Origin: a virus
Taxonomy: Duplodnaviria > Heunggongvirae > Uroviricota > Caudoviricetes
Reading direction: 5' to 3' (one strand)
Virus record (IMG/VR): IMGVR_UViG_2541047847_000004
DNA length: 54,394 nt
Shown here: in pieces, positions 29,193 to 52,890 of the stretch
How positions within the stretch are numbered: the first letter of the stretch is position 1
Layout of the letters: every line of letters begins with the position of its first letter
Made by a program: the position numbers and the translations under genes
The notes under the pieces: generated by a model
Database searches by the model: none
What the model saw: the letters and a program-made list of their open reading frames with translations, nothing else
What the model was told of the DNA's origin: nothing

Positions 29193-29582
29193 TCAGGCGG
29201 CTGCACCCGCCGGTTTCTCATACTTACTGATAGTGATCTCGACCTTCCCTTTCGGGATAACCGGTCCCCACTCCACCAGCATTCTTTTCACCTGTCTGTC
29301 GTCTTCCCACACACCCGCGTGGGTCAGGGCGTCAAACAGCGCCTTGTTATAGTTGTCCAGATCGCGGATCCGGTTATCCGGAGGAAACAACACGATCTCC
29401 ACTGAAGCAGGTGCCGACGTTGGTTTTGGCAGACGACGTAACTGCTCAACTATTGCTGCGCACGCCGCGCTCTGAAATTTTCGCCCCGCCGCGCTTATCA
29501 GGCTCTTACCAGCAAATGCCCCTTTGTTGGGGTGTCGCCAGTAGGTGTTCACGCTGGGCGGGAAAGGCAGGATCAGCTTCAT
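29193..29582 (-). CDS. rusA: Holliday junction resolvase RusA
   Basis: 129 aa, PFPPSVNTYWR N-terminus and conserved acidic residues typical of RusA. Confidence 0.75.
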   Translation of the reverse strand: MKLILPFPPSVNTYWRHPNKGAFAGKSLISAAGRKFQSAACAAIVEQLRRLPKPTSAPASVEIVLFPPDNRIRDLDNYNKALFDALTHAGVWEDDRQVKRMLVEWGPVIPKGKVEITISKYEKPAGAAA

Positions 29583-29905
29583 ACTTTCAGGCCCCTCTCA
29601 TGTAACCAGTGGGCTGCACGCAGCCTGGCGTTTTCCTCACCGACAAGCAGTGAGCGGATAATCCCGACCGCCTCGCTGTCGTCGTCCTTCACCGCGGTAT
29701 GAAGCGTGATCCCCCGGGCCACACCACGCTTTATCGTGATGACGCCTTTTTTCTCCAGTGCGCGAAGATGCTCCACCGCTGCATTCACCGAACGGTATCC
29801 CAGCATGGTTGCCACCTCCTGATTGGTTGGCGGGAAGCCACGCTCTTTCTGATAAGAAATCAGCATATCCAGCACCTGCTGCTGGCATTGAGTTAACGTC
29901 GTCAT
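29579..29905 (-). CDS. LexA DNA-binding-domain-only protein (no S24 peptidase domain)
   Basis: 108 aa; LTQCQQQVLDMLISYQKERGFPPTNQEVATMLGYRSVNAAVEHLRALEKKGVI closely parallels the LexA N-terminal winged helix. Confidence 0.6.
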   Translation of the reverse strand: MTTLTQCQQQVLDMLISYQKERGFPPTNQEVATMLGYRSVNAAVEHLRALEKKGVITIKRGVARGITLHTAVKDDDSEAVGIIRSLLVGEENARLRAAHWLHERGLKV

Positions 29906-30555
29906 GCCGCCATCTCCCTGACCAGCTTTTCCGCCTGCAGGCGAACCTGCGCCAGAAACGCCTCACCACATGCCTCAAGTTCATCGCGCCCGATGTAGCT
30001 GATTGCCGGTCCCTTCCAGGTCTTGTCGAAAACAGCAATAGCACCAGCGAAGAAAGCGCCTGTCGGCACCTGCTTCTCATCCTTCGGGATAAACCAGGCA
30101 GGCAGTTCAAAACCAATACGCCCGCGAATAAAAGCAATATGATCTGCATCTTCCGGCCACCACACTTCGCTGGTGGCAGCTTTGATCAGGAAAACATAGC
30201 GCCCGCCCTTATCACGCATGGCACTGGCATGCTTCATGATGTAACGCATGCCGGTGATGTATTGCCCCTCATGCTGACTGGCGCGGCTGTATGGGGGATT
30301 TCCAAAGGCAGCACCTTTAAGCTCCGCAAGGCGTTCTGACCAGTCATGCGCCAGCGCGTTGTCTTCCGCCGTGTAATACGCAGCACATTTGGCGTTATCA
30401 CCGTCAGTGAACAGATCCAGAACAAACGGACCAAACAGGGTGTTAATTCCCCAGAAAATGTTGTCCGGCGTGCGCCACTGATCGCCCACTTCCTTCAGTT
30501 CATGGGCTGGTTTGTTCCGCAGTTCCACCAGCTCCTGGCAATATTTATTACTCAT
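29902..30555 (-). CDS. Phage orphan DNA N6-adenine methyltransferase (Dam-like)
   Basis: GNPPYS (DPPY-type) catalytic motif; start set to ATG at 30555 overlapping the upstream stop (TAATG). Confidence 0.7.
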   Translation of the reverse strand: MSNKYCQELVELRNKPAHELKEVGDQWRTPDNIFWGINTLFGPFVLDLFTDGDNAKCAAYYTAEDNALAHDWSERLAELKGAAFGNPPYSRASQHEGQYITGMRYIMKHASAMRDKGGRYVFLIKAATSEVWWPEDADHIAFIRGRIGFELPAWFIPKDEKQVPTGAFFAGAIAVFDKTWKGPAISYIGRDELEACGEAFLAQVRLQAEKLVREMAA

Positions 30556-31049
30556 TAAGCCCCCACGTAATTCCCTGACAGATACCACTCTTCACCTGAT
30601 GCAGCCCGCTTACTGCTTTTCCGTAAACACCGTTCACGACGCGCCAGAAAATTGTTTCGTTCTGGCTGGGAGTAGCTTTCACGGAATGCCGCCATCCACA
30701 CCGTTGCAGCACGACGGTATAAGCCCCTGGACTCCAGTTCTTCCGCCTGGCGGGTCAGGCACAAAATCACCCGGGGATCGTTAGTGCCGACATAGAAATT
30801 GCGCACAGGTCTGGTTTCACGAACTGGTTGTGGTTCCGGCTCCTGCGCTCTCTCAGTCAGGCGTGGGAAATGTCTGCGTGTATCTCCTTCACAACGGTGA
30901 GCCACACGCCCACTCTGACGTAACTTGCTTGCTGACTGCAGAACGCGCTGCCGTGAGTAACCTGCAAAAGCATCCGCAATGTCTCCGGAAGTACAGCCCG
31001 GATGGGCTTCAATGAATTTCTGAACGTCATTCAAAAGACTCATGATCAC
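30555..31049 (-). CDS. PerC-family (Pch-like) transcriptional regulator
   Basis: C-terminal ...AEELESRGLYRRAATVWMAAF resembles the PerC signature (LE..GLWRRAA..W); assignment from memory. Confidence 0.45.
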   Translation of the reverse strand: MIMSLLNDVQKFIEAHPGCTSGDIADAFAGYSRQRVLQSASKLRQSGRVAHRCEGDTRRHFPRLTERAQEPEPQPVRETRPVRNFYVGTNDPRVILCLTRQAEELESRGLYRRAATVWMAAFRESYSQPERNNFLARRERCLRKSSKRAASGEEWYLSGNYVGA

Positions 31050-31987
31050 CCCCTGAATCCTGCCGGGATCTGGCTGTAGTCCACGTTGTCGTAACTGGCT
31101 TTGAAGTACGGGTCTTCGCGTTTTTCGGTGTACGTGCTGACGGACGGCGATAAGCGCAGGGAAAGCTCATCCCATTTTTCCCGCAACTTCGACGGGCTGA
31201 GCACGTTACGGCACCAGAACGGATCGCGGCTGACGCGGCTGTACATCTCGCAGATTTGTTTGTGAGTACGACCATCCTGCACACACATCAGGCGAATTTC
31301 GTTTGCCCATGCTGTCCAGTTAGGTTCTTTGGGACGAACCACCTCGCCGTCACATTCGGCGGCCTGCTCGTACAGGGCGATGATTTTTTTCCAGAGCCAC
31401 TGTGCGCAGGTCAAATCATCCTGCGTCCCCCACTGGCGCTTTTTAGGGCTGAATACAACCGCATCAGGATGGCGAGTTAAAAAATCCTGTTCATCCGTCT
31501 GCGTGTCCGGTTGCGAAGCGTCCGGACGAGAAGGTTTTTTATCTGACGGATCATGTTTTGATTTTACTGACGGATCCCCGCCAGATTCTGACGGGTGAAA
31601 ACCCGCTTTTTTGCCAGATTTCGACGCATCAAATTTTGACGGGTCAGATTTTGATGCGTCAGATTTTGACGGGTCAGAATCTGACAGTTGAGAAAATGCC
31701 GCTGCCTGAAGCTTCGCAACGTTAAGCTGATAAACATTCGACGCATTGCGGTTACCCTGGCGACGCGCCTTACGCGTTAACCAGCCTTCTGCTTCCAGCC
31801 GTGCGATAGCCGTTCTGACGGTACTCATCCCCGCGCCAATCTGACGGGCAATAGTTTCAATTGATGGCCAGCACACACCTTCGTCATTACTGAAATCAGC
31901 CAGGCGGGCCATAATTGCCACGCTGGATAATTTCATGCCTGACGCAGCGCAACCATCCCATACATAGCCGGTTAATTTAGTGCTCAT
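31046..31987 (-). CDS. Replication initiator (lambda O-like) with internal iterons
   Basis: 313 aa, HTH-like N-terminus, internal Asp/Ser/Lys repeat region encoded by 15-bp iterons. Confidence 0.65.
   Translation of the reverse strand: MSTKLTGYVWDGCAASGMKLSSVAIMARLADFSNDEGVCWPSIETIARQIGAGMSTVRTAIARLEAEGWLTRKARRQGNRNASNVYQLNVAKLQAAAFSQLSDSDPSKSDASKSDPSKFDASKSGKKAGFHPSESGGDPSVKSKHDPSDKKPSRPDASQPDTQTDEQDFLTRHPDAVVFSPKKRQWGTQDDLTCAQWLWKKIIALYEQAAECDGEVVRPKEPNWTAWANEIRLMCVQDGRTHKQICEMYSRVSRDPFWCRNVLSPSKLREKWDELSLRLSPSVSTYTEKREDPYFKASYDNVDYSQIPAGFRG
31540..31690. repeat. Origin-like iteron array inside the O-like gene
   Basis: About eight copies of a ~15-bp unit (consensus agattttgacgggtc), five of them contiguous at 31616-31690. 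Confidence 0.6.
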
Positions 31988-32335: not shown

Positions 32336-32889
32336 GCGTTAGTTTCTCCACAACCAGAAGCAATCGACGCCACGACGCCCGGAGCTGCACACTCGCGGGC
32401 GTCATTACTTTCTGAAACGCAAAAAATTTTGTAGACAAGTGCTGCATGCTCCTGCAGCTTCGAAATTGAGAGGTACAGCTCGTCGTTAATTGCTGTCTTC
32501 TCATGCGGTTCCACTACACCGTCTTCGATTGCCGAACGAATCTGTTTTGAATAACTGCCGATCTGTTCAATGACTTCCAGTAAACGCTGGTTAATATCGG
32601 CATTGTCCACATCCTCGACGTCAGGAAGAGACACAAAGACGCCATTTGCAGACTGCGCCACAGCGTCAGCAATGAAGTGAGTGCCACCAGCACGTTGTAA
32701 AATCATTGCCCATCCCAGCGGGAAAATCTGATCGCCATCGGCACGAAGGCGGTTAAATAATGCGTTCTCTGTTACATCCAGCCACTCAGCAGCTTCAGCG
32801 TAACCCCCCGGCAACGCCGCGATAGTTTTTCTGACAGCTTTCACGTACCACTCAGGCTGTTTTTCCACTTTCCAGTGATGATTACCCAC
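32332..32889 (-). CDS. Early regulatory-region protein (YmfL-like)
   Basis: 185 aa directly downstream of cro-like gene. Confidence 0.5.
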
Positions 32890-33142
32890 GGCTTACCTCC
32901 TGTTCCTGTGGTTTAAACCCATTCTGGTTTTGGCTAGATTGAAAACGTGCCGGATAAAGAATCTGCATTTCGCTGATTTCACCCTTAAAAAAATTGGCCA
33001 GACGTTCTGCAAGATCGATAGATGGAATTTGTTCCAGTCTTTCAATACGACTCAGCGTCGCTGGATTGACCTGAACGCCAGCAGCAACATGCTGCAAAGT
33101 AAATCCGTGCGCCTTACGCACATTCCGTAATGGTGATTGCAT
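32882..33142 (-). CDS. Cro-like HTH regulator (XRE family)
   Basis: 86 aa, HTH GFTLQHVAAGVQVNPATLSRIE; divergent from cI. Confidence 0.7.
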   Translation of the reverse strand: MQSPLRNVRKAHGFTLQHVAAGVQVNPATLSRIERLEQIPSIDLAERLANFFKGEISEMQILYPARFQSSQNQNGFKPQEQEVSRG

Positions 33143-33239: not shown

Positions 33240-33932
33240 ATGAACATAGGAAACCGAGTCAGACAACTTCGCCAGGCGAAGAACATGAAAATCGCCGATC
33301 TCGCTGAAGCAATAGGAGTGGATGCGGCGAATATCTCACGCCTGGAAACAGGTAAGCAGAAACAATTCACTGAACAAGCCCTGAGTAATATTGCCAGGAG
33401 CTTAGGTGTTGATATTGCTGATCTCTTTACCTCAGACTTCAAAAGTAATACTGTATGTAAAAACAGTATTAGTGAGGATGTTGCGCAGGTGAAGGATGTA
33501 TTCCGTATTGAAATGCTGGATGTCAGTGCCAGTGCGGGAAATGGCCTTATCCAGGGCGGTGATGTCATTGATGTGATTCATGCCATTGAATACAGAACTG
33601 ATAATGCTGTATCGATGTTTGGCGGACGGCCAGCCAATCACATTAAAGTTATCAACGTTCGTGGGGACAGTATGTGTCCAACCATTGAGCCAGGAGATCT
33701 CATCTTCGTTGATGTCAGTATCAATCAGTTTGATGGAGATGGTATCTATGTATTTGGTTTTGATGATAAAATTTATGTCAAACGACTGCAAATGATACCT
33801 GACAAACTACTGGTGATTTCTGATAACCAGATTTACCGTGAATGGGGAATTACCAGCGAAAATGAACACCGGTTTATGGTCTTTGGAAAGGTCTTAATCA
33901 GCCAGTCACAAACCCTTAAGCGACACAATTAA
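33240..33932 (+). CDS. CI-like repressor (HTH + S24 LexA-type autopeptidase)
   Basis: 230 aa; N-terminal HTH, C-terminal VRGDSMCPT...KR Ser/Lys dyad. Confidence 0.85.
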   Translation: MNIGNRVRQLRQAKNMKIADLAEAIGVDAANISRLETGKQKQFTEQALSNIARSLGVDIADLFTSDFKSNTVCKNSISEDVAQVKDVFRIEMLDVSASAGNGLIQGGDVIDVIHAIEYRTDNAVSMFGGRPANHIKVINVRGDSMCPTIEPGDLIFVDVSINQFDGDGIYVFGFDDKIYVKRLQMIPDKLLVISDNQIYREWGITSENEHRFMVFGKVLISQSQTLKRHN

Positions 33933-37516: not shown

Positions 37517-37762
37517 ATGTTGCTCCCGTGTGCAGACGGGATAATGGAGAAACGTATGCTGAACCTCGATTGTGTTCCTATCTCAACTTATTGCAAAGAA
37601 ACTGGCGAAACTCCTGAAGCAATAAACAAACGTGTACAGCGCGGTGTTTGGCGTGAAGGTGTTCAGGTTTTAAAGGTTGAAGGCGTTAAGGAGAGGTGGA
37701 TTGATCTTAGTGAGGTTGCAAAATGGGCCAGACAAAACTGCTCAAACTACCGCGCGGCGTAA
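37517..37762 (+). CDS. xis: Excisionase-like protein
   Basis: Small basic ORF directly upstream of and overlapping int; alternative start at 37556 (GGAG + 6 nt). Confidence 0.5.
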   Translation: MLLPCADGIMEKRMLNLDCVPISTYCKETGETPEAINKRVQRGVWREGVQVLKVEGVKERWIDLSEVAKWARQNCSNYRAA

Positions 37763-38895
37763 CAATCAGGAAACACCGCCAGGGAGAAACGATCAATATA
37801 ACTTTCACCTACAAAGGAGTTAGATGTCGTGAGCCGCTTTCCAATCTGGAAGTAACACCAAAGAACATTAAATACGCCGAGCGTACACTCGGCGAAATCC
37901 ATAATAAGATCGAAAGGGGAACATTCATTTATGCAGAATATTTTCCCCGTTCTGCTCGTTTGAAAATTTTTGGTAATGCTGCTGCAGGCAAAACGGTAAA
38001 GGTGTACCTGGACGAATATCTTGAAATCTGCGAAACAAGAAAACTTTCACCCTCTACGATTGGTGGCTATAAAAAATGCCGTAGTGCGTTAGCCTCACTT
38101 CACATTTGCCCTGCAAGTGAATTAACACCAGCAACCCTGAAAGCGTGGATTCAAAGCCAGAAAACAACCTTAAAAACCATTCGCAACCAGTTATCTTTCC
38201 TACGGTCAGCACTTGATGAAGCCGTGACCGATGGGGTACTTCAAATTAACCCCGTATCGTTAGTAACAGCTTCGCGCTACCAAAGTGATAAGTCAGAAGC
38301 AGAAAGCAGCTATGTGGTTGATCCGCTATCACCAGCAGAAGTTGATGCATTACTAGCAGCAGCCGGAAACAAACAATGGGAAAATCTGTTCCGGTTCGCC
38401 ATACATACAGGCCTGCGTAGTTCTGAATTATGTGCCCTACGATGGCATGATATCGACTTTGTTGGAAAAACAGCCCATGTTCAGAGCGCAAGTGTTGTCG
38501 GAGTTATCAAAGGAACAAAGACAAAAGCCGGTACCCGTAAAGTTGAACTGACTGAAGAAGCAATGTTGGCGTTGATAAACCAGAAGCCATTTACATTCAT
38601 GAAGGATGCTACTGTCTTTGAAGATCCAAAGACCAATAAACCCTGGGCAAGTGCTGATGCAATTAGGAAAAAAGCATGGGTGCCAACATTGCGAAAAGCA
38701 GGTATTCGTTACAGAAACCCATATCAAACCAGGCATACATTCGCCACCAGCCATATCAGCCGGGGAGCAAACCTGTTTTGGCTTGCGGCTCAAATGGGCC
38801 ATAAAGGGCCTGAAATGTTATTCAGGCACTATGGACAATACTTGAAAGAGTATGATGGGAGGGCAAGTATCAAGGATAAAAAGGCTTTATTTTAA
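37723..38895 (+). CDS. int: Tyrosine integrase (prophage)
   Basis: 390 aa; C-terminal R...H..R...Y catalytic pattern (HTFATSHISRGANLF...LGHKGPEMLFRHYGQY). Confidence 0.85.
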   Translation: MGQTKLLKLPRGVTIRKHRQGETINITFTYKGVRCREPLSNLEVTPKNIKYAERTLGEIHNKIERGTFIYAEYFPRSARLKIFGNAAAGKTVKVYLDEYLEICETRKLSPSTIGGYKKCRSALASLHICPASELTPATLKAWIQSQKTTLKTIRNQLSFLRSALDEAVTDGVLQINPVSLVTASRYQSDKSEAESSYVVDPLSPAEVDALLAAAGNKQWENLFRFAIHTGLRSSELCALRWHDIDFVGKTAHVQSASVVGVIKGTKTKAGTRKVELTEEAMLALINQKPFTFMKDATVFEDPKTNKPWASADAIRKKAWVPTLRKAGIRYRNPYQTRHTFATSHISRGANLFWLAAQMGHKGPEMLFRHYGQYLKEYDGRASIKDKKALF

Positions 38896-40941: not shown

Positions 40942-41055
40942 CTTGCTCTTCCGGATACGTCCGGAGAAATCCTGAAAGCCCGCATGGCACAAGCTTTGCG
41001 GGCTTTTTTGTGTCTATCTTTGTCCGAGGATATCCAGCTAAATCCAGTGATTATT

Positions 41056-41103
41056 GGTATATGTTTAGGTATACGGTAAGATGTATACCTAAAAGCGTAT
41101 ACC
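41056..41103. repeat. Cluster of four GGTATAC motifs upstream of int (putative integrase arm-type sites)
   Basis: Two direct and two inverted GGTATAC copies; two further copies at 52640-52658 near the other element end. Confidence 0.35.
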
Positions 41104-41125
41104 AATACTCTGAGGTAGGATAATC

Positions 41126-42319
41126 GTGGCACGTACAACACGCCCTCTTACTAACACTGAACTATCACGTGCTAAAGCAACTGAAAAGGATCTAACGCTA
41201 CATGATGGTGATGGGCTTTTTCTACTCATAAAAACGAACGGAAGGAAGTTGTGGCGTTTCCGATACCAGAAGCCTGTATCAAAACAGAGAACCATGATTA
41301 GTTTAGGAACGTTCCCCGCCCTATCTCTGGCTGAGGCCAGAAACGTGCGTGCTGAGTATCTTTCCTTATTAGCCCGGGGTATTGATCCACAAACATACAG
41401 TAAGCAAGTCTCAGAACATCAACAGATTGCGATTGATAGTATTTTTTCAAAAGTTGCCACAAATTGGTTTGCCATAAAAAGCAATAACGTCACACCTGAT
41501 TATGCAAAGGATATATGGCGATCCTTAGAGAGGGACATTTTCCCTGCTATCGGTGAGATTCCTGTTCAGGAAATAAAAGCCCGCACATTAATTGAAGCCC
41601 TAGAGCCAATTAAAGCTCGTGGGGCACTTGAGACTGTTCGTCGTTTAGTACAACGTATTAATGAAATTATGATTTATGCTGTTAATACTGGTCTGATAGA
41701 TGCTAACCCTGCTTCAGGCATTGGTATGGCATTTGAAAAACCTAAAAAACAGCACATGCCAACGCTTAGACCTGAAGAATTACCGAAACTCATGCGTTCA
41801 ATAACAATGTCTAATTTATCTATTCCAACTCGTTGTTTGATTGAATGGCAACTCTTAACACTTGTACGCCCTGCAGAAGCTTCCAATGCAAAGTGGATAG
41901 AGATCGATTTCGAAGCTAAACTATGGATAATACCAGCCAATAGAATGAAGGCAAAGCGGGAACATATTGTTCCATTATCACTTCAGACATTAGATATTCT
42001 TGAAATTATGAAGCCAATCAGTTCACATCGAGAATATATTTTTCCTAGCAGGAATAACCCCAATCAACCAATGAACAGTCAGACGGCAAATGCAGCCTTA
42101 AAGCGCATCGGTTATGGTGGTAAGTTGGTTGCACACGGACTGCGTTCGATAGCAAGTACAGCAATGAATGAAGCTGGTATAAATCCAGATATTATCGAAG
42201 CAGCACTTTCCCATTGTGATAAAAATGAGGTTAGAAGAGCATATAATCGAACAACCTACTTGGAACAAAGAAAAGAGCTTATGAATTGGTGGGGTAGTTT
42301 CATTTCAAAAAACAAATAA
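41126..42319 (+). CDS. int: P4-type tyrosine integrase
   Basis: 397 aa from GTG; N-terminus MARTTRPLT...LHDGDGLFLLIKTNGRKLWRFRY typical of P4-family integrases next to ssrA. Confidence 0.9.
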   Translation: MARTTRPLTNTELSRAKATEKDLTLHDGDGLFLLIKTNGRKLWRFRYQKPVSKQRTMISLGTFPALSLAEARNVRAEYLSLLARGIDPQTYSKQVSEHQQIAIDSIFSKVATNWFAIKSNNVTPDYAKDIWRSLERDIFPAIGEIPVQEIKARTLIEALEPIKARGALETVRRLVQRINEIMIYAVNTGLIDANPASGIGMAFEKPKKQHMPTLRPEELPKLMRSITMSNLSIPTRCLIEWQLLTLVRPAEASNAKWIEIDFEAKLWIIPANRMKAKREHIVPLSLQTLDILEIMKPISSHREYIFPSRNNPNQPMNSQTANAALKRIGYGGKLVAHGLRSIASTAMNEAGINPDIIEAALSHCDKNEVRRAYNRTTYLEQRKELMNWWGSFISKNK

Positions 42320-42329
42320 GGATATAGTG

Positions 42330-43445
42330 ATGAATAATAAAGATTTTCCATGCAAAGCCTCAAATATCTATGATAAAAATATAAATTTTTTATTTGGCTC
42401 AGGCTCCTCTGCTTCATATATTCCTACTCTCTATCTAGATAAAAACACTACTTATGAAACATTACTTACACATGAGGATTGTGAGGGTGTCAAGGACTTC
42501 ATATTATGTTCTTATTTCAATAATATCATTAGAAAAACATTTTGTGTTAAACCTAATAGTGAAGACAAAAAATATAATTCTACTTTAGCAAACTATAGCT
42601 ACTTTATTGATGAACTAATCAAATTATTAGAGAAAAAAGGGGCAAATCAAATAAGGCGAGCGAATATTTTTACAACAAATTATGATCTTTTTTTCGAAAC
42701 TGCGGCTGATGATATTTTAAATAATAAAACATTTCATTTCAATGACGGTGGTCTAGGTTTCAAAAGCCGGAAATTGAACATTAGTAATTTTCATATTACT
42801 GCTTGGCATCAAGGTACGCATGATATGTACAAACATGAAATTCCAACAGTAAACTTAATAAAAATGCATGGTTCTGTTTCTTGGTGTAGAGATATTAATG
42901 AAACGATTAGTATTAATTACACTCAAGAAGAACCACCAAAGTTTAGACTAGATACAAAAAAAGACATTAATGATTTAGTCACCACCTTAAACGAAACAAG
43001 CGATAATCTCGTTAGTTATTTAAATTTATCTACAAGCGATCAAGAAACACTTCAAGAATTTAAATCTTATTACAACAACTTAGCTATAGTTAGCCCAACT
43101 AAAGAAAAATTTTCTGAAACTGTTTTTCAACAACATTATTACCAATGTTTACGATTGCTAAGTTATGAATTAGAGAAACCACAAACTGTATTAATTTGTT
43201 TTGGTTTTTCTTTTCAAGATGAACACATACGTGAGATTATAAAAAGATCATTAAGTAACCCTACTCTTAAGGTCTTTGTTTTTTGCTACTCAAAATCCAG
43301 CATGGAAAGTATACAGCACATTATCAATGACCAACGAATAACCTATATTCTTCCTATAGAAGATGATCATACAATTTCATTTAAACCGTTTATAGATAGA
43401 GTATTTAGATCTGAACACGGAGATTGGATTACATGGAAGAACTAA
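42330..43445 (+). CDS. SIR2-family NADase-like protein (defence pair with HerA)
   Basis: FLFGSGSS (Rossmann GxGxS), TTNYD and KMHGSVSW motifs characteristic of SIR2 domains; AT-rich; start at ATG 42330. Confidence 0.7.
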   Translation: MNNKDFPCKASNIYDKNINFLFGSGSSASYIPTLYLDKNTTYETLLTHEDCEGVKDFILCSYFNNIIRKTFCVKPNSEDKKYNSTLANYSYFIDELIKLLEKKGANQIRRANIFTTNYDLFFETAADDILNNKTFHFNDGGLGFKSRKLNISNFHITAWHQGTHDMYKHEIPTVNLIKMHGSVSWCRDINETISINYTQEEPPKFRLDTKKDINDLVTTLNETSDNLVSYLNLSTSDQETLQEFKSYYNNLAIVSPTKEKFSETVFQQHYYQCLRLLSYELEKPQTVLICFGFSFQDEHIREIIKRSLSNPTLKVFVFCYSKSSMESIQHIINDQRITYILPIEDDHTISFKPFIDRVFRSEHGDWITWKN

Positions 43446-45205
43446 TTGTTGGTAATGTTACCCAAATAAAGGGCACAACAGTAAGGGCCAAAATCAATCA
43501 TGACTTTTTTCAGTCAACATACTTTCATAAAGGTAAAATACTACGAGGTATCTCTATAAATGAATTTGTTTTGATTAAAAAAGGTTATCACGATATCGTC
43601 GGAAAGATTATTGGTGAAGAAATTGTTGAAAACATCAATATTAGAAGCGATGAAATTGAACAAAAAAAATATGACCGTTTTGTAGAACTGAATATTTTAG
43701 GGTATTTTTTTGAGAGTTCATTTTATTCCGGTATAAAATTTTTACCAATGATAAATGACAGCTTACACTTAATTTCAGACGAGAAGATATCAGAAATATA
43801 TAAGTTTAGCAAAAACACTAAAGCACCTTTAATAAACATAGGGAAATCTATGTTAGAGGAGTTGCCAATTAACATACCAATAAATGGTATTTTTAATTCA
43901 CACATAGGCATATTTGGAAACACTGGAAGTGGCAAGTCCAACACTCTTGCAAAACTTTATCACTCTCTAATAAACCTTATAACAACAAAAGAAAGAGTTA
44001 TATCAAAATCAAGTTTTGTTTTGATTGATTTTAATGGTGAATACAGCACATTTGCTACGTCATTTCCAGATTTGTGCGAACAAGTCAATCTCAACACAAA
44101 GAATTCCGGTGATAAACTAACTTTCACTGATGATGAATTTTGGGATGATGAATTATTATCGGTATTGTTTTCTGCAACTGAAAAAACTCAAAAGCCATTT
44201 CTTAGTCATTTAATTAAAAATAGAGAAAAATATAATGGTAAATTGGAGGATTACTTACAAACAACTATCCACAGTATGTTTTCTCCTAATCCACACAGGG
44301 AAACAATAAATTTATTAAAAAGCCTTGCCCCTTACTTTTCAGAGAGAGCACAGGGTAAAATACTTGAAGAGTTATCACAATTCTCATGGCATTCTGGGCA
44401 AAATAAGTATTTGCACTCAAAATACAACTTCATTGATAAAATGGAAGATGCTTTACAGGCTTTAGATGCAACATATAAATCCAAGTTTAAGTTAAACAGC
44501 GTTTTTGATGAAGTTGCAATCCGATCTATTCTACAACTAATTAATTCAGTATCACGTAATTATGTACAATATGATCATATATATCCGCTAATTAATAAAA
44601 TAACGGCAATGACTCCTGCCCTATCCAAAGTAATTAATATCAGAAACGAAACAAAAAATAAAAAACCTATATATATAGTGTCATTAAAAGAGTGCAATCA
44701 ATTAATCAAAAAAACCATTCCAATGATGCTTGCAAAATGTTCATTCTTAGAGCACAAGTCATCTAAAAATACAAAGGAAAGCTTCCACCTAATTATAGAT
44801 GAAGCACACAACATATTGTCTGAAACATCTGTCAGAGAGGCGGAAACATGGAAAGATTATAGGCTTGAGTTATTTGAGGAAATAATAAAAGAGGGAAGGA
44901 AGTTTGGGTTCTTCGTTACAATTTCGAGTCAACGACCTTTTGACATCTCTCCCACAATTGTTTCCCAACTTCATAATTATTTTATTCATCGATTAGTGAA
45001 CGAAAATGATTTGTTTTTGTTAAAAAATACTTTAAGCACCCTTGATGCGGCATCAAGATCACTAATTCCAACACTTCCTCCTGGTGGGTGTATAGTTTCA
45101 GGAACAGCTTTCCACACCCCATTACTTGTTCAAATCGACAGATTAGCTGAGGAAAATGCTCCTAACAGCGATACTCTTGATTTAGAAAAATTGTGGGATA
45201 TTTAA
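43433..45205 (+). CDS. herA: HerA-like ATPase
   Basis: Walker A GNTGSGKSN and Walker B HLIIDEAHN; overlaps SIR2 stop; start at ATG 43433 (track TTG 43424). Confidence 0.75.
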   Translation: MEELIVGNVTQIKGTTVRAKINHDFFQSTYFHKGKILRGISINEFVLIKKGYHDIVGKIIGEEIVENINIRSDEIEQKKYDRFVELNILGYFFESSFYSGIKFLPMINDSLHLISDEKISEIYKFSKNTKAPLINIGKSMLEELPINIPINGIFNSHIGIFGNTGSGKSNTLAKLYHSLINLITTKERVISKSSFVLIDFNGEYSTFATSFPDLCEQVNLNTKNSGDKLTFTDDEFWDDELLSVLFSATEKTQKPFLSHLIKNREKYNGKLEDYLQTTIHSMFSPNPHRETINLLKSLAPYFSERAQGKILEELSQFSWHSGQNKYLHSKYNFIDKMEDALQALDATYKSKFKLNSVFDEVAIRSILQLINSVSRNYVQYDHIYPLINKITAMTPALSKVINIRNETKNKKPIYIVSLKECNQLIKKTIPMMLAKCSFLEHKSSKNTKESFHLIIDEAHNILSETSVREAETWKDYRLELFEEIIKEGRKFGFFVTISSQRPFDISPTIVSQLHNYFIHRLVNENDLFLLKNTLSTLDAASRSLIPTLPPGGCIVSGTAFHTPLLVQIDRLAEENAPNSDTLDLEKLWDI

Positions 45206-45225
45206 TATCGCTACGCGCAGTGCTT

Positions 45226-45262
45226 TCCCCGCCTCGCCCGCACGCTTTGCGGGGCGGTTTTA
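45226..45262 (+). terminator. Intrinsic terminator after herA
   Basis: ccccgc...gcgggg stem followed by cggtttta; two further GC-rich hairpins at 45286-45309 and 45340-45374. Confidence 0.5.
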
Positions 45263-45402
45263 ATGCAGTTGCACTGACACGCTCAGACCGCGCCGGGAAT
45301 GGCGCGGTCTGCAGAAAATGAGGCAGGGAAACGCATGCAAAGCCATGCACCTTATCGATGCATGGCTTTTTTCAGTAAAAACAGGCGGATTTTCGGGAAA
45401 TT

Positions 45403-45975
45403 TTACACAGACTGACGTGATGCCAGTTGCGCACTTTTACGCGAAAAAATCATGTTCTGCGCAGGGGTAAATTTTTCACGGCTGTCGTCCACCGAAGCCG
45501 CGTCAGGCCTGAATCCGATGGTCGTTAAAATGTCGCTATCCTGTGCGGAATAATTAATTTTTTCCCCCTTCGCAAGCCAGGACAGAAGGGCTTCACGCAG
45601 GGCATCTGTGGCACGCTGTATGGCACAGTTTCGGGCAATGGCCGTCAGCTCACTGTAGCCCATCAGCTCCGGTGCCAGTGCCGCCGCCAGTGCTGTGCCG
45701 TGCTGCTGCATAAAATCATTCAGCCGGTCGCGGATGCTGATGTGCTGAACGGCTTCATGCGAACGAATATAACGACCAGCGGCCTGATTCACCTGCCATT
45801 TTCTGACTTCGATAATATTGCGTAATTCGTCCAGGCGACTGACGTTTCTGCCTTCTCCTGACAGAAGCCGCAGATATTCCTGTTCGGCCGCTGCCAGCTC
45901 ATTTTTGCGTTGCAGCCATGCTGCTTTGTTATTCTGACAGGTGTCAAAGGCCTGCTGTAAGGCTGTGCTTTCCAT
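45403..45975 (-). CDS. psu: Polarity suppression protein Psu
   Basis: 190 aa, same length and position as P4 Psu in the sid-delta-psu block. Confidence 0.75.
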   Translation of the reverse strand: MESTALQQAFDTCQNNKAAWLQRKNELAAAEQEYLRLLSGEGRNVSRLDELRNIIEVRKWQVNQAAGRYIRSHEAVQHISIRDRLNDFMQQHGTALAAALAPELMGYSELTAIARNCAIQRATDALREALLSWLAKGEKINYSAQDSDILTTIGFRPDAASVDDSREKFTPAQNMIFSRKSAQLASRQSV

Positions 45976-46048
45976 CGTTATCTCTTTCTCATCATGCTGA
46001 AGAATAAAAATACGGTGTGCGGCGACGGCCGGTGTTAACCGGCAGCCC

Positions 46049-46549
46049 TCATTCCAGACGCAGCGAATATGATTGTGTTTTTAAGCGTACTGGCGGCAGT
46101 TCCTGTTTTTCATGCAGGCTTTCTGCCAGTTCGTCCGGCGTGACCGGGCGGACAATGAAACGGTTGATGGTCTGAAGCGTTTTAAACACCAGACCACAGC
46201 CCGGATCCGTGCACACATAAAAACGCTCGGTGACTTCCTGAGACAGACGCCGCGATGTTCTTGACAGTGCAAGGCCTTTACATCTCCGACAACAATATCC
46301 GGTAACAAGCATTCTTTTCGGGCGTTTCATACTGCCGGAGGCTGACGTCAGTGAATCGCGGTATCTCTGTTTGCCTGAAATGTATTCCATTCCTGAATCT
46401 TTACTGTCAGAGAAAAAGCTTTCACTCGCTTCAAATGTCGCAGAGCAATAAATATTCCGGCACTGTGCAATCATTATCTTGGTGCCATCGTCCATGAAAT
46501 GTGCGCGGCGGGTGTGAGCAACATGACCACACGACGGGCAGTAAATCAT
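46049..46549 (-). CDS. delta: Delta (Ogr/Delta zinc-finger late transcription activator)
   Basis: 166 aa with two CxxC...CxxC units (CPSCGH...C...C and CCRRCKG...CTDPGC). Confidence 0.75.
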   Translation of the reverse strand: MIYCPSCGHVAHTRRAHFMDDGTKIMIAQCRNIYCSATFEASESFFSDSKDSGMEYISGKQRYRDSLTSASGSMKRPKRMLVTGYCCRRCKGLALSRTSRRLSQEVTERFYVCTDPGCGLVFKTLQTINRFIVRPVTPDELAESLHEKQELPPVRLKTQSYSLRLE

Positions 46550-47280
46550 GACAGCAGTCCTCTGGCCTTAAGCACTGCTCCCTGCTGGTCTATTTTGTCC
46601 TGCCACACCTTGCGCTGTGCCGGTGTGCCTGCCACCTCATAATCCATGTGAGGAAGTGTTGCCGCTGACAGTCCGGTCAGCCGGAGAACCGGCTCGCCGG
46701 TGAGGCTGATTTGCATCTGTTTAATTTTCTGTTCCAGCGATGATTTCACCTGCTGCATGACAGCCTTTTCCGGTGCGACGTAGCCCTGATGGCCGGTGGT
46801 GTTGGCGAGCGGATTTTCCTGTACCAGAATGCTCAGATGCATTGCCCGGACAAGCGCCTCACAGGTTTCATTCAGGGCGTGTTCCAGCTCATGCTCTGCA
46901 TACAGACTCAGAAGGTGATGATGTGCCTTCCGGTAGGCGGTGGCCGTGCTGTCACACGCCCCTTTCAGGCGTTCGCGTTCAAAATTCAGCACCACGGCCA
47001 GATTGTCATATTCCTGTACCAGTTCCCGGCGTGCCACGCGCTCAATGTGGCGCTGTTTCAGCTCGTCGCTCAGGACACCACCGGCTGCACGAAAGGCCGT
47101 GCGCCAGTCGTCAGCGTCGTTTCCGTCGGCCTGCGCCAGCGCATTTTTTTCCTGCTCTGCCCGTTCAATGGCCGTGACGGTCTCATCCATCAGGCGGGCG
47201 TTCTCAAGATGGGCGGCTCTGGCCTTTTCCAGTTGTGCCAGTGCGGGTTGCAGATATTCAGGGATGGTGTTGTCAGACAT
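46546..47280 (-). CDS. sid: Capsid size determination protein Sid
   Basis: 244 aa from ATG 47280; upstream of delta with overlapping stop/start. Confidence 0.7.
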   Translation of the reverse strand: MSDNTIPEYLQPALAQLEKARAAHLENARLMDETVTAIERAEQEKNALAQADGNDADDWRTAFRAAGGVLSDELKQRHIERVARRELVQEYDNLAVVLNFERERLKGACDSTATAYRKAHHHLLSLYAEHELEHALNETCEALVRAMHLSILVQENPLANTTGHQGYVAPEKAVMQQVKSSLEQKIKQMQISLTGEPVLRLTGLSAATLPHMDYEVAGTPAQRKVWQDKIDQQGAVLKARGLLS

Positions 47281-47449
47281 TTTCCGGCTCCTCGTCACTT
47301 CAGGTTAAGAAAATTGTGACGTACACCGGACAACAACACGACGCATTGCAGATGTGCCAGCCCTGACACAGGAGACTCATCCTCAGACCGGCAAGCCAGG
47401 AAAAGGTCGCAGGAAAAACCGGCTTACTGTTTGTTTTTTTATATTTTAC

Positions 47450-47553
47450 TGTTCACCTCTGTTCACCATAAGAAAAAAGACAAGTAATACAGTAAGTTAA
47501 ATGGTGAACAATCGCAGTAATGACTGTTCACCGTCTGTTCACCACTGTTCACC
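47450..47553. repeat. TGTTCACC iteron cluster (P4 crr/ori-type alpha-binding sites)
   Basis: Six TGTTCACC octamers (five direct, one inverted) within ~100 bp. Confidence 0.6.
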
Positions 47554-47880
47554 CGTTGATGGGCTTTTTGTGCTGTTTATTACTGTTTGTTTTTATTAAT
47601 TCGCCGGGAATGAATAAGAAAAAACGATTTGTATTTCACTATAAAAATTACGAATTGCTTTAAGTGGCTTTAAATGACTTTAAGTGGAGATGAACAAAAA
47701 ACACACAAGCATTATAAGACTGCCGGAACAAATCCCCCCTGTTGCGTCTGCTGAAAATATTCACAAAATAAAGCGCTACCCGAAGCCGGACGGACTTATC
47801 CGGTGCTGTATGGACATTAACGAGGTAGCCCGATGCAAGCTGTTTTTTCTTCCCCGTCTCCCGCCCCTGTGACGCCACTG

Positions 47881-48099
47881 ATGCCGCTGCCGGACATCAC
47901 GCAGGAGCGTTTTTTACGTCTGCCGGAAGTGATGCACCTGTGCGGCCTGTCACGCTCGACCATCTATGAACTCATCCGTAAGGGGGAATTTCCGCCGCAG
48001 GTGAGTCTTGGCGGTAAAAATGTGGCCTGGCTGCACTCTGAAGTCACTGCATGGATGGCCGGGCGCATTGCCGGACGCAAACGGGGGTACGACGCATGA
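47881..48099 (+). CDS. AlpA-family transcriptional regulator (Vis-like)
   Basis: [31 protein letters not shown] typical of AlpA; start set to ATG 47881. Confidence 0.6.
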
Positions 48100-48497
48100 T
48101 GATGCCCGCTCTGCAAAAACGCCCTTTTTCTGGCTTGCCTTTTTCCGGCATTTGCGGATATAGTTTTTCCGCTGCCGCAAAATCGGCAGCCGGGCGTGGA
48201 AACCCGAGCAATTCACAGGCGACATATGACGCGCCATGCGTCTTTTTTTGTGTCGCAATCAACGCCACAGAGCGCCAGATTATGGTGTGGTGTGTGGTCA
48301 GTCGTGCAGATGGCATTCCGTGCATCCTGCCCGCGTCCGCTCATTATGCCGCAGAGTCAATGGTAGCTCAGGCGGGGCAGCCTCCGGGCTGGCCGGTATC
48401 CTGTGAAGCCGGTATTTCCACCCCCGTCTGGGCTATCGCCATCGAGCGTGGAAACTCCGGCGATAGCGTTATTTGCTATTCACAGGAGGCTGCCATC

Positions 48498-48695
48498 ATG
48501 GCTACAACCCTTACCCCCTCACACCCTGAATTTGTCTTTGTGTTTGCGGCTGTCCGTCGCGCAGACCGTCATCCCCGTATCTGTATGCTTCGCACCGTCG
48601 CCGGTGATGAACGCAGTGCCCGCCGTTCCCTTGTCCGTGACTATGTGCTCTCCCTTGCTGCCCGTCTGCCGGTGGTGGAGGTGTCCCGTGCGTAA
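48498..48695 (+). CDS. Icd-like small protein
   Basis: 65 aa from ATG 48498 (AGGAGG upstream); in-frame with a longer track ORF that I consider an artefact. Confidence 0.4.
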
Positions 48696-48975
48696 TAAAA
48701 AAGCCCCTCAGACCGTCTCAGCGCGTCATGACGCCCGTGAACACCTCAGCATTGAGGCTTACCATAAGCTCAACCGCGCCAGCGCCGTATCCCGGTTTGT
48801 TGGGGGTGATTTGATTCACCGTGAACTCTCCGGCCTGCATCAGCTCTACATTCCGCATATTTTCAGCTACCTGAATGAAGATATTGATTTTGTGCTGAAT
48901 GAGCTGAAAGCCAAAGGCCTGTGCCGCGATTTTCTCGCCCAGCAGAAAGACCGGGGAGACAGGACGCATGTTTGA
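48688..48975 (+). CDS. Hypothetical 95-aa protein (epsilon-like by position)
   Basis: GTG start with GGAGG 7 nt upstream, overlaps preceding stop; position equivalent to P4 epsilon. Confidence 0.35.
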
Positions 48976-49423
48976 TTTTCCCCAGCCCGGTGAGATTTAC
49001 CGTTCTGCCGGTTTTCCCGATGTGGCCGTGGTCGGCATTCTGGAAGACGGTATTCCGTGGGAAATGCCGTACCGCTGCCCGGACATTGTCTGGAACCCGT
49101 ACCGCCGTAAATTCAGTATCCTTGTGCGTATCCTCGCTGACGGGCGCACCACAGACATCCCGCTGGGGCGTTTTCTGCGGGAATTTACCTGTGACCGTCC
49201 TGACCTGTTTAAACGCAGCCCCGTAAACCGGCATGCGGTACTGAAAGAAATGGCCGGAGACCCGGAATTACAGAAATGGCGGGAGAAATATCTGGATATT
49301 TACCCGCAGGACACTGTTCCGGCCAGCCGGGCGGCACCGGTGGCGCGGGAATGGCGGGAAATTCCCCGCACGGAGCCTGACCCGGAAATCACCCCGGATA
49401 ACAGTTACCGCAATTATCTGTAA
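48968..49423 (+). CDS. Hypothetical 151-aa protein (P4 orf151-like by size and position)
   Basis: Translationally coupled to upstream gene; upstream of alpha. Confidence 0.45.
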   Translation: MFDFPQPGEIYRSAGFPDVAVVGILEDGIPWEMPYRCPDIVWNPYRRKFSILVRILADGRTTDIPLGRFLREFTCDRPDLFKRSPVNRHAVLKEMAGDPELQKWREKYLDIYPQDTVPASRAAPVAREWREIPRTEPDPEITPDNSYRNYL

Positions 49424-49558
49424 TTAAAAAACGACACCCGAAAAATTAAATGTGCGTATTCGCGCAGGGATACGCACGTCTTCAGGAGACGCAGATATGC
49501 CTTATCAGTTAATGCAACCGGCACGGAATGCAGTCATCTGTCACAGGGAGGAAAGCAA

Positions 49559-49879
49559 ATGAAAACACCCTTACCGCCCGTCTTACGCGCTGCCCTTTAC
49601 CGTCGCGCTGTCGCCTGTGCCTGGCTGACCGTGTGCGAACGTCAGCACCGCTACCCGCATCTCACCCTTGAGTCACTGGAGGCGGCCATCGCCGCTGAGC
49701 TGGAAGGCTTTTATCTGCGCCAGCACGGTGAGGAAAAAGGGCGTCAGATAGCCTGTGCCCTGCTGGAAGATTTAATGGAATCCGGCCCCCTGAAGGCCGC
49801 GCCGTCGCTGTCCTTTCTCGGGCTGGTTGTGATGGATGAACTCTGTGCCCGTCACATAAAAGCGCCGGTACTGCACTGA
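49559..49879 (+). CDS. Hypothetical 106-aa protein
   Basis: ORF with AGGGAGGA RBS immediately upstream of alpha. Confidence 0.4.
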
Positions 49880-49893
49880 AGGAGAACAACACC

Positions 49894-52227
49894 ATGAAAA
49901 TGAACGTAACCGCCACCGTCAGCCATGCGCTCGGCCACTGGCCGCGTATTCTCCCGGCGCTGGGGATTCAGGTGCTGAAGAACCGTCATCAGCCCTGTCC
50001 GGTCTGTGGCGGGAGTGACCGCTTCCGTTTTGATGACAGGGAGGGGCGTGGCACCTGGTACTGCAATCAGTGTGGTGCCGGTGACGGCCTGAAACTGGTT
50101 GAAAAGGTGTTTGGTGTTTCCCCGTCCGACGCGGCCGCAAAGGTGGCTGCCGTGACCGGCAGCCTGCCACCGGCTGACCCGGCAGTGACGGCCGCCGCCG
50201 TTGCTGAAACAGAAGCCGCCCGGAAGAACGCCGCCGCACTGGCACAAACCCTGATGGCGAAAACCCGTCCCGGAACCGGTAACGCCTACCTGACCCGCAA
50301 GGGCTTTCCCGGCCGGGAATGCCGGATGCTGACCGGCACACACAGAGCCGGTGGCGTGAGCTGGCGCGCCGGTGACCTTGTGGTGCCACTGTATGACGAC
50401 AGCGGCGAACTGGTTAACCTTCAGTTAATCAGTGCTGACGGCCGTAAGCGCACCCTGAAAGGCGGACAGGTCAGGGGCACCTGTCACATCCTTGAAGGAC
50501 AGAATCAGACCGGAAAACGTCTGTGGATAGCGGAGGGATACGCGACCGCACTTACCGTGCATCACCTGACCGGTGAAACGGTGATGGTGGCGCTTTCTTC
50601 CGTGAACCTCCTTTCTCTGGCCAGCCTTGCCCGGCAGAAGCATCCGGCCTGTCAGATTGTCCTTGCCGCAGACCGTGACCTCAGCGGTGACGGCCAGAAA
50701 AAAGCCGCCGCAGCCGCAGATGCGTGTGAAGGTGTTGTTGCCCTGCCGCCGGTCTTCGGTGACTGGAATGATGCCTTCACGCAGTACGGCGGGGAAGCCA
50801 CCCGTAAGGCCATTTACGATGCCATCCGGCCACCGGCTGAAAGCCCGTTCGACACCATGAGCGAAGCGGAGTTTTCCGCCATGAGTACCAGCGAAAAGGC
50901 CATGCGTATCTATGAGCATTACGGCGAGGCGCTCGCGGTCGATGCCAACGGCCAGCTTCTGTCCCGCTATGAAAATGGTGTCTGGAAGGTGCTGCCGCCA
51001 CAGGACTTTGCCCGGGATGTGGCCGGGCTGTTTCAGCGGCTGCGCGCGCCGTTCTCCTCCGGGAAGGTGGCCTCCGTGGTGGACACCCTGAAGCTGATTA
51101 TTCCGCAGCAGGAAGCCCCCTCCCGCCGCCTGATTGGCTTTCGTAACGGCGTGCTCGACACGCAGAACGGCACGTTCCACCCGCACAGTCCGTCACACTG
51201 GATGCGCACCCTGTGCGATGTGGATTTCACCCCACCGGTGGAAGGGGAAACGCTGGAAACCCACGCCCCCGCGTTCTGGCGCTGGCTTGACCGTGCCGCC
51301 GGTGGCCGTGCGGAAAAACGCGACGTGATTCTGGCCGCACTGTTTATGGTGCTGGCAAACCGCTACGACTGGCAGCTCTTTCTGGAGGTGACCGGTCCCG
51401 GCGGCAGCGGCAAAAGTATCATGGCCGAAATAGCCACCCTGCTGGCCGGGGAGGATAACGCCACGTCGGCCACCATTGAGACGCTGGAATCCCCGCGTGA
51501 ACGTGCCGCGTTAACTGGCTTCTCACTGATACGCCTGCCGGACCAGGAAAAATGGAGCGGCGACGGTGCCGGACTCAAGGCCATCACCGGCGGCGATGCG
51601 GTGTCCGTGGACCCGAAATACCGGGATGCGTACTCCACGCATATCCCGGCGGTGATTCTGGCCGTGAACAATAACCCGATGCGCTTCACCGACCGCAGCG
51701 GCGGCGTGTCACGCCGGCGGGTGATTATTCACTTCCCGGAACAGATAGCCCCGCAGGAGCGCGACCCGCAGCTTAAGGACAAAATCACCCGCGAGCTGGC
51801 GGTCATCGTGCGTCACCTGATGCAGAAATTCAGCGACCCGATGCTCGCCCGGTCACTGCTTCAGTCCCAGCAGAACTCAGACGAGGCGCTGAACATCAAA
51901 CGGGATGCCGACCCGACGTTTGATTTTATCGGCTATCTGGAAACCCTGCCGCAGACCAGCGGCATGTATATGGGGAACGCCAGTATCATCCCGCGCAATT
52001 ACCGTAAATACCTCTATCACGCCTATCTGGCCTACATGGAGGCAAACGGCTACCGGAATGTACTCAGTCTGAAAATGTTCGGGCTGGGGCTGCCGGTGAT
52101 GCTGAAGGAATACGGACTGAATTACGAGAAGCGCCATACCAAACAGGGGATACAGACCAACCTGACGCTGAAAGAGGAAAGCTACGGCGACTGGCTGCCA
52201 AAATGTGACGACCCTGCGACAGCCTGA
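49894..52227 (+). CDS. alpha: Alpha primase-helicase (P4 alpha-like)
   Basis: 777 aa: N-terminal Zn-binding CPVCGG...CNQCG, TOPRIM-like region, P-loop VTGPGGSGKS. Confidence 0.9.
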   Translation: MKMNVTATVSHALGHWPRILPALGIQVLKNRHQPCPVCGGSDRFRFDDREGRGTWYCNQCGAGDGLKLVEKVFGVSPSDAAAKVAAVTGSLPPADPAVTAAAVAETEAARKNAAALAQTLMAKTRPGTGNAYLTRKGFPGRECRMLTGTHRAGGVSWRAGDLVVPLYDDSGELVNLQLISADGRKRTLKGGQVRGTCHILEGQNQTGKRLWIAEGYATALTVHHLTGETVMVALSSVNLLSLASLARQKHPACQIVLAADRDLSGDGQKKAAAAADACEGVVALPPVFGDWNDAFTQYGGEATRKAIYDAIRPPAESPFDTMSEAEFSAMSTSEKAMRIYEHYGEALAVDANGQLLSRYENGVWKVLPPQDFARDVAGLFQRLRAPFSSGKVASVVDTLKLIIPQQEAPSRRLIGFRNGVLDTQNGTFHPHSPSHWMRTLCDVDFTPPVEGETLETHAPAFWRWLDRAAGGRAEKRDVILAALFMVLANRYDWQLFLEVTGPGGSGKSIMAEIATLLAGEDNATSATIETLESPRERAALTGFSLIRLPDQEKWSGDGAGLKAITGGDAVSVDPKYRDAYSTHIPAVILAVNNNPMRFTDRSGGVSRRRVIIHFPEQIAPQERDPQLKDKITRELAVIVRHLMQKFSDPMLARSLLQSQQNSDEALNIKRDADPTFDFIGYLETLPQTSGMYMGNASIIPRNYRKYLYHAYLAYMEANGYRNVLSLKMFGLGLPVMLKEYGLNYEKRHTKQGIQTNLTLKEESYGDWLPKCDDPATA

Positions 52228-52234
52228 CCCACCT

Positions 52235-52259
52235 GACCGGCATCTGCCGGTCTTTTTTT
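52235..52259 (+). terminator. Intrinsic terminator after alpha
   Basis: gaccggc-atct-gccggtc followed by seven T. Confidence 0.6.
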
Positions 52260-52269
52260 ATCCCTGAAT

Positions 52270-52590: not shown

Positions 52591-52712
52591 TCAATCCAAG
52601 TAAAAATGCGCTTTCATTTCACATTAACTTACAGCCATTGGTATACGATTAGGTATACGTACAAAAACTGAATTAAACAAAATCATTAAAAATCAAAACA
52701 ATACAGCATTTA

Positions 52713-52734
52713 TTCAAACTCCGCCAGCCCACCA
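52713..52734 (+). repeat. Diverged copy of the ssrA 3' end (probable attR of the P4-like element)
   Basis: TTCAAACTCCGCCAGCCCACCA vs TTCAACTCCCGCCAGCTCCACCA at 40919-40941. Confidence 0.4.
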
Positions 52735-52861: not shown

Positions 52862-52890
52862 AAAGCCCGCTGATGCGGGCTTTTTTATTG
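52862..52890 (+). terminator. Intrinsic terminator
   Basis: aaagcccgc-tgat-gcgggcttt followed by ttttatt. Confidence 0.5.

Follow-up and report, generated by a model that had tools for sequence, protein, structure and literature searches.

A prophage-encoded LexA winged helix with a conserved C-terminal hairpin in place of the autopeptidase domain, encoded directly upstream of rusA

The window analysed here, by which we mean the whole stretch of 54,394 nucleotides, is E. coli DNA and carries a prophage with a string of overlapping early genes on the minus strand, one of which encodes a 108-residue protein that we refer to as mini-LexA. The genes needed to place it, with the evidence for their assignment where this was not simply their position, are the following.

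29579..29905, minus strand: mini-LexA ORF, 108 aa (MTTLTQCQQQVLDML...HERGLKV; ORF list, Pfam LexA_DNA_bind, PHROG 362)
29193..29582, minus strand: RusA Holliday-junction resolvase gene, the downstream neighbour (PF05866)
29579..29582, minus strand: ATGA overlap of the mini-LexA stop and the RusA start (read from the sequence)
29902..29905, minus strand: ATGA overlap of the Dam stop and the mini-LexA start (read from the sequence)
29902..30588, minus strand: phage Dam (N6-adenine methyltransferase) gene, a variable upstream neighbour (PF05869, TIGR01712)
30555..31049, minus strand: PerC-like (YfdN) gene in the same overlapping early-operon string (Pfam PerC; PGAP annotation of the UTI89 homologue)
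31046..31987, minus strand: O-like replication gene
32882..33142, minus strand: cro
37723..38895, plus strand: integrase

Along the minus strand the genes follow one another in the order cro, cII/YmfL-like, O-like, PerC-like yfdN, Dam, mini-LexA, RusA, a KilA-N gene, DUF968/HNH, Q, lysis genes and head genes, and both cI and the integrase gene lie on the plus strand. The mini-LexA ORF runs from an ATG, preceded at a distance of 8 nt by a Shine-Dalgarno-like GGGAG run, to a TGA. A first-pass annotation had described the gene as translationally coupled to Dam upstream and RusA downstream, and four-base ATGA overlaps are indeed present at both ends: the TGA of Dam (29902-29904) overlaps the mini-LexA ATG (29903-29905), and the mini-LexA TGA (29579-29581) overlaps the RusA ATG (29580-29582). 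Comparison with other loci showed that only the downstream partner is constant. RusA followed the family member in 95 of 95 loci, at protein identities of 45-100%, and did so with an overlap or a gap of at most 9 nt in 87 of them, the other eight being loci in which RusA follows a longer C-terminal variant. The upstream neighbour was Dam, PerC, a replication gene or a C5-type methyltransferase, and Dam was not upstream in the Citrobacter and mEp390-type loci. In every phage examined (including SfV, cdtI, UTI89, SfII, Citrobacter and mEp390) the gene has the replication genes on one side and Q on the other, within the early right (nin) operon. Given this nin-like position in the rightward early operon, and by analogy with lambdoid phages, we infer that mini-LexA is transcribed from pR only once cI is inactive.

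Two repeat elements were noted in these phages. In the O-like gene of the window, at approximately 31550-31750, the replication protein contains a repetitive SDSDPSKSDASKSDPSKFDASKS stretch with repeats in the other frames too, which suggests that origin iterons are embedded in the gene, as in lambda O. All of the mEp390-type loci (L104-L183) carry an inverted repeat, GGTTGC-N3-GCAACC, about 1.8 kb upstream of their mini-LexA homologue (e.g. at 6219 in L104); it bears no relation to LexA half-sites and may be a replication-module element.

Within the protein itself, three parts could be delimited.

29702..29905, minus strand: LexA-type winged helix-turn-helix, residues 1-68, three helices and a two-strand wing (AlphaFold2 model, Foldseek match to 3jso)
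29750..29791, minus strand: recognition helix SVNAAVEHLRALEK, residues 39-52 (translation, gapless LexA alignment)
29597..29686, minus strand: C-terminal two-helix hairpin, residues 74-103, in place of the S24 domain (AlphaFold2 model, conservation, dN/dS)

The first of these corresponds to the N-terminal winged helix of LexA, as had been proposed from the translation. Residues 1-65 matched the complete Pfam LexA_DNA_bind model (PF01726, positions 1-65 of 65) at E=2.9e-19, scoring 69 bits where the family cutoff is 23.7 bits, and a phmmer search of all PDB chains placed residues 2-69, without a gap, on the identically numbered residues of E. coli LexA (1lea, 3jso; E~1e-15). An AlphaFold model computed with 19 family sequences as input (pLDDT 84.9) consists of helices at residues 6-22, 28-35 and 40-52 and strands at 56-58 and 66-68, and Foldseek superposed this winged helix on the LexA-DNA complex 3jso with an rmsd of 1.0 Å over 68 residues at 50% identity. 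The further proposal that the protein ends before the Ser/Lys peptidase domain was likewise borne out. No match to Peptidase_S24 was obtained in Pfam or NCBIfam, the model contains only two helices after the wing, and the chain stops at residue 108, approximately 20 residues beyond the position of the LexA cleavage site. At that position mini-LexA has V88-G89 and its relatives have AG, AN, SG, RK, DD or AE, so that a conserved Ala-Gly self-cleavage site is absent across the family in the alignment of relatives; for the same reason we rejected an AGE in the hairpin turn as a relic of the LexA cleavage site, since A/V-G is not kept. Because there is neither an S24 autopeptidase nor a conserved Ala-Gly site, RecA-stimulated self-cleavage of mini-LexA is not expected. 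The NCBIfam equivalog for LexA, TIGR00498, was covered only over model positions 1-91 of 203 and scored 67.8 bits, which is below its cutoff of 110.95 bits. Since the S24 domain, the cleavage site and an equivalog-level score are all missing, mini-LexA falls, by these sequence tests, outside LexA proper, and it belongs with the phage-encoded truncated LexA homologues. In contrast to E. coli LexA (1lea, 1jhh, 3jso), it has no S24 peptidase and dimerisation domain and carries a helical hairpin after the wing, valine in place of E44 and asparagine in place of R28, and whereas LexA is an autoregulated host gene, mini-LexA is a phage gene in an early lytic operon.

The hairpin makes up most of the last 35-40 residues or so after the wing and is amphipathic and conserved, with predicted helices at residues 74-87 and 93-103 (pLDDT ~90). 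L86, L87, A97, L101 and G105 do not vary among 71 distinct family proteins, in which I82, R94 and W100 reach a conservation of 98% or more; the copy in the window has V88 where A88 is the commoner residue. This element may serve in oligomerisation or in binding a partner. In the mEp390-type sister clade, pairwise dN/dS was 0.196 over the winged helix and 0.191 over the hairpin, so that the two parts of the protein are both functional and under purifying selection, and family members keep a steady length of 104-108 aa. In eight loci on IMG/VR contigs (L095-L102, at ~8001-8477) the same slot is occupied by a 158-aa variant. Its gene overlaps that of a large DNA methyltransferase on the upstream side and RusA on the downstream side. 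The variant shares the LexA winged helix (60% identity over residues 1-68), which is followed by approximately 90 residues that are unrelated to the hairpin and match PHROGs 24920 and 29443. What stays constant across these loci is the LexA head, and the tail can be exchanged. We also observed that many database proteins (P0130, P0132, P0148, P0151-P0154 and others) carry tandem LexA_DNA_bind heads in one chain without S24, which is another route to a dimer-like LexA head without the peptidase.

As a sequence family mini-LexA is already known and annotated. It aligned over residues 1-108 to positions 1-106 of the 106 in PHROG 362 (“transcriptional repressor”; E=5.4e-59), PGAP names it “LexA family transcriptional regulator”, and the members so listed (SfV orf42, SfII gp44, cdtI orf48, mEp460 and mEp390 gp43) are of the same family, sit at the same site upstream of rusA and show no substantive difference from it. 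Phage records label it in various ways, “LexA DNA binding domain protein” being one and the erroneous “SOS-response repressor and protease LexA” another. The gene was found in 2233 of 5426 complete E. coli genomes (41%), in up to four copies each, and at 95-99% DNA identity in approximately 50 phage records, among them SfV orf42, SfII, SfIV, cdtI, mEp460, 1720a-02 and Stx phages, the latter comprising three Stx2/Stx2a records and all fifteen matching Stx2c-converting records. An exhaustive HMMER search of 1.8 billion representatives recovered full-length relatives with the hairpin at 40-50% identity (P0123, P0125, P0128, P0131, P0136, P0164, P0177, P0242 and P0250), and a profile search of genome contigs returned mainly host lexA of other Gammaproteobacteria, the only true full-length member being that of Kosakonia (L006). 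Full-text literature searches yielded no functional study of the enterobacterial gene. What is new here is the conserved hairpin, a dN/dS of about 0.2 for both parts and the constant linkage to RusA.

We then considered what the winged helix might recognise. The residues with which LexA contacts DNA are S39, N41, A42, E44 and E45 (PMC3091678). mini-LexA retains four of these five, S39, N41, A42 and E45, together with the wing motif R64-G65-I66, and helix 3 and the wing are its parts most conserved relative to E. coli LexA. Position 44 is V or A across the whole family. The clade to which the protein of the window belongs keeps S39, N41, A42 or S42, and E45, and elsewhere among its relatives A42 is replaced by S or T. 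Position 45 varies in the mEp390-type loci, where helix alleles differing at codons 44-49 were found: AAAEHVKA in 43 loci, AAVAHVKS (E45A) in 26 and AAVEHVKS in 6, with single D45 and T45 variants in addition and E45 replaced by A in 27 of 80 loci overall. In the syntenic Citrobacter homologue the helix reads SVNTIAGH, that is, A42T and E45G. The polymorphism of the mEp390-type helix may represent a specificity switch or relaxed constraint. Such variability at contact positions is difficult to square with a family that acts throughout on one invariant host SOS box; the E45-keeping clade of the protein in the window may well recognise CTGT-type sites. The first-pass annotation had suggested that such a protein could occupy SOS boxes without being cleavable in response to RecA. 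The second half of this proposal is well founded, as neither the S24 domain nor the cleavage site is present, and the retention of S39, N41, A42 and E45 is in keeping with the first half; against it, the contacts vary within the family and the phages do not carry a consistent SOS box. A canonical SOS box as the target of mini-LexA thus appears only moderately likely.

Phage-borne targets were sought around the gene in several ways. No CTGT-N8-ACAG was present within 8 kb of the gene in 73 of the 80 mEp390-type loci, nor was an SOS box found at the prophage locus of UTI89, where the copy of the gene is 98% identical. When pairs of CTGT/ACAG and ACTGT/ACAGT half-sites were counted in all orientations at spacings of 0-20, no alternative arrangement was enriched, and only the canonical N8 arrangement appeared, confined to the seven box-bearing loci. 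Comparison of 5+5 inverted repeats with the recognition-helix allele revealed no co-variation, only linked coding differences, and no conserved palindrome was detected in or beside the gene module, the single weak inverted-repeat pair lying inside the ORF. A search of the window for the palindrome GaCACAnnTGTGaC, the binding site of the truncated LexA homologue gp6 discussed below, gave one match with two mismatches, in a coding region, where 1.8 are expected by chance. A second CTGT-N8-ACAG (CTCTGTGGTTACTTACAGCC), found in 48 of 80 IMG/VR loci at 1.2 kb from the cI box described in the next paragraph, was rejected as an operator: it lies in GC-flanked coding sequence and is absent from the window. 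Separately, in SfV, cdtI, Eeyore and phiNP (L001 34170, L002 44083, L004 20325 and L088 1214) the late DNA methyltransferase gene located between Q and the holin has a good SOS box (TACTGTAAAAATAAACAGTG or a near variant) across its first codons. This box occurs in phages with and without mini-LexA, and that methyltransferase gene is absent from the window.

The search for CTGT-N8-ACAG in the prophage itself did return one strong site, which lies inside the repressor gene.

33240..33932, plus strand: cI repressor, helix-turn-helix plus S24 peptidase, of the Fels-1 FsoR / ST64B sb38 type (ORF, PHROG 4/6201)
33449..33468, no strand assigned: SOS box TACTGTATGTAAAAACAGTA within the cI ORF; no other canonical SOS box occurs in the window

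The box agrees with the consensus at 17 of 20 positions, and 0.12 such sites are expected by chance when one mismatch is allowed. It falls on the linker codons N-T-V-C-K-N-S. For comparison, we set the cI of the window beside those of SfII, ST64B (sb38), Klebsiella Kp4871-1, Citrobacter phiNP, Eeyore, Fels-1 (FsoR) and Cronobacter ENT47670 (loci L005, L086, L087, L088, L004, L185 and L186). In all eight homologues, which are 50-100% identical and come from six genera, TACTGT-N8-(A/C)CAGT occupies the same place, while the linker around it diverges and contains indels; the GDSM and VKRL motifs are invariant. The box is present in ST64B, Kp4871-1, phiNP and Eeyore, although no mini-LexA gene was found in their fetched loci, and mini-LexA accompanied this exact cI in 58 of the 63 IMG/VR phages that have it with sufficient flanking sequence, being absent from five. 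Since the box is kept in phages without mini-LexA, it is not a dedicated mini-LexA operator. To judge from its conservation, it is probably a site for host LexA, and it would become a candidate operator if mini-LexA binds SOS boxes, but one that is independent of mini-LexA in its evolution. We found no mention of this cI-internal box in the literature examined.

Further features accompany the box in the same eight cI homologues. In 8 of 8, the TACTGT of the box is preceded at a distance of 17 nt by a TTTAC(C/A)-like hexamer, and an in-frame GTG follows 40-52 nt after the start of the box, also in 8 of 8, preceded by a purine-rich Shine-Dalgarno-like run (GAGGA, GGAGAGGA, AGAGGAGA, GGGGAGGA) that encodes different amino acids among the phages. 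Three more distant cI homologues have neither the box nor the GTG. It is tempting to speculate that these elements form a LexA-repressed internal promoter and start from which a CI C-terminal fragment of approximately 147 aa would be made on SOS induction; a simple sigma-70 scan gave no promoter with 9 of 12 matches at the box. The Fels-1 cI homologue is cleaved on mitomycin C treatment (PMC3121763). Fels-1 induction has been reported to be independent of lexA3 (PMC3121763), and the cI-internal element is therefore not essential for induction.

LexA heads that act without a peptidase domain have been described before. gp6 of GIL01, a tectivirus of Bacillus thuringiensis, is the only phage-encoded truncated LexA homologue to have been characterised. 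It is made early upon SOS induction, acts alongside host LexA, binds the palindrome GaCACAnnTGTGaC rather than a LexA box at a position overlapping the -35 element, and, once LexA is gone, activates the late promoter P3 (PMC6182141). With this precedent, a LexA head without the peptidase in a temperate phage is a known kind of regulator. To the extent that the two can be compared by published description, mini-LexA resembles gp6 in being a phage-encoded truncated LexA homologue and differs from it in several respects: the phage type and the host phylum are other ones, gp6 has only a 14-residue extension forming the wing whereas the C-terminal hairpin occurs only in mini-LexA, the gp6 site is not above chance in the window, and late control in the mini-LexA phage is exerted by Q. 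A second point of comparison is provided by the N-terminal fragments of S24 repressors (LexA 1-84; the CI-NTD of an S. aureus phage), which are also DNA-binding heads without the C-terminal domain. Such fragments go on binding and repressing until they are degraded (PMC10584840), and those of LexA are removed by ClpXP and Lon (bioRxiv 10.1101/2020.07.07.191791). Unlike mini-LexA, which is a stand-alone protein with a conserved C-terminal module of its own, they are transient cleavage products that carry a degradation signal. In operator-bound LexA the N-terminal domains contact each other (PMC3159453).

We consider it highly probable that mini-LexA is a functional, sequence-specific DNA-binding regulator that is insensitive to RecA. 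How it would act is proposed more tentatively. As a small delayed-early (nin-region) regulator of a lambdoid prophage, it would be made from the pR transcript, only after inactivation of cI, would dimerise via its hairpin and, on DNA, via the wings as the N-terminal domain of LexA does, and the helix retaining S39, N41, A42 and E45 would bind CTGT-type, SOS-box-like palindromes. Because RecA* cannot inactivate it, the protein could then re-impose LexA-like repression while host LexA is being destroyed, with host SOS genes, LexA-controlled genes of co-resident prophages and the SOS box inside its own cI as possible targets. Taken as a whole, this sequence of a RecA-insensitive, hairpin-dimerised, LexA-like repressor acting on SOS boxes early in lytic growth is the likeliest account, with, in our estimation, somewhat less than an even chance of being correct. 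A more elaborate version, in which an uncleavable surrogate LexA closes both the SOS regulon and the cI-internal operator again, forms a two-LexA timing circuit with the host protein and is inherited together with RusA, since with SOS shut off the host's induced functions for junction processing are gone, would make the system a lambdoid counterpart of GIL01 LexA/gp6 with the opposite sign; we regard it as unlikely.

A serious rival to an SOS-box target is private specificity of the kind seen for gp6, in which the winged helix has diverged and governs phage-specific promoters through a non-SOS palindrome, as activator or repressor, with targets that co-evolve with the phage. That gp6 itself binds GaCACAnnTGTGaC rather than the LexA box and activates P3, that the recognition helix is polymorphic in close relatives (AEA, VAS and VES alleles; SVNTIAGH in Citrobacter) and that most related phage loci are devoid of a canonical SOS box would all fit such a protein. 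The target search speaks against it, as it produced no conserved palindrome in or next to the gene module, no enriched arrangement of ACTGT half-sites, no inverted repeat co-varying with the helix allele and no gp6-type site above chance; moreover, late transcription is under the Q antiterminator, so that a late activator is not required, and the clade of mini-LexA keeps S39, N41, A42 or S42, and E45. Weighing both sides, we judge this possible, if rather doubtful. The constancy of RusA, which remains downstream across 45-100% identity while the upstream neighbour changes, could instead mean that mini-LexA is an accessory to RusA and not a general transcription factor, one that, for example, compensates for, or exploits, the shut-off of host recombination and SOS functions or buffers damage signalling from RusA cleavage. 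Overlapping start and stop codons are usual throughout nin regions, and coupling alone is therefore weak evidence for such a role. RusA also occurs without mini-LexA in ST64B and in four IMG/VR loci with this cI, and the 158-aa variants exchange the C-terminal part that would contact the partner although their RusA is still 67% identical, which together leave an accessory function improbable. Finally, the resemblance to a truncated LexA and the alignment to TIGR00498 through model position 91 might be taken to indicate a decaying remnant of a captured lexA with no present function. This is already contradicted by the selection and distribution data, namely the dN/dS of ~0.2 in both halves, the length of 104-108 aa, the invariant hairpin residues, the occurrence in 41% of complete E. 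coli genomes and the full-length relatives at 40-50% identity in other lineages, and we attach next to no weight to it.

As a sequence feature the gene is ordinary; it is also common, under selection and apparently unstudied. Two points about the locus deserve most attention, namely the invariant linkage to RusA and the LexA box conserved within cI. If mini-LexA does occupy SOS boxes, approximately 40% of sequenced E. coli would carry a prophage gene able to silence SOS during phage development, with effects on mutagenesis, antibiotic persistence, colicin release and the induction of other prophages nearby, among them Stx phages, of which several have mini-LexA themselves. If its specificity has instead diverged like that of gp6, phages would have reused the LexA head as a private regulator in a second, independent case.

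One further observation concerns the right flank of the window (~41000-54394), beyond the prophage integrase, which matches a P4-like satellite element that lies beside glaH in other E. coli genomes. Among the genes annotated in this flank are those for a primase-helicase, an integrase, Sid (the capsid-size protein) and a SIR2-family protein, and the prophage therefore abuts a satellite or defence island.
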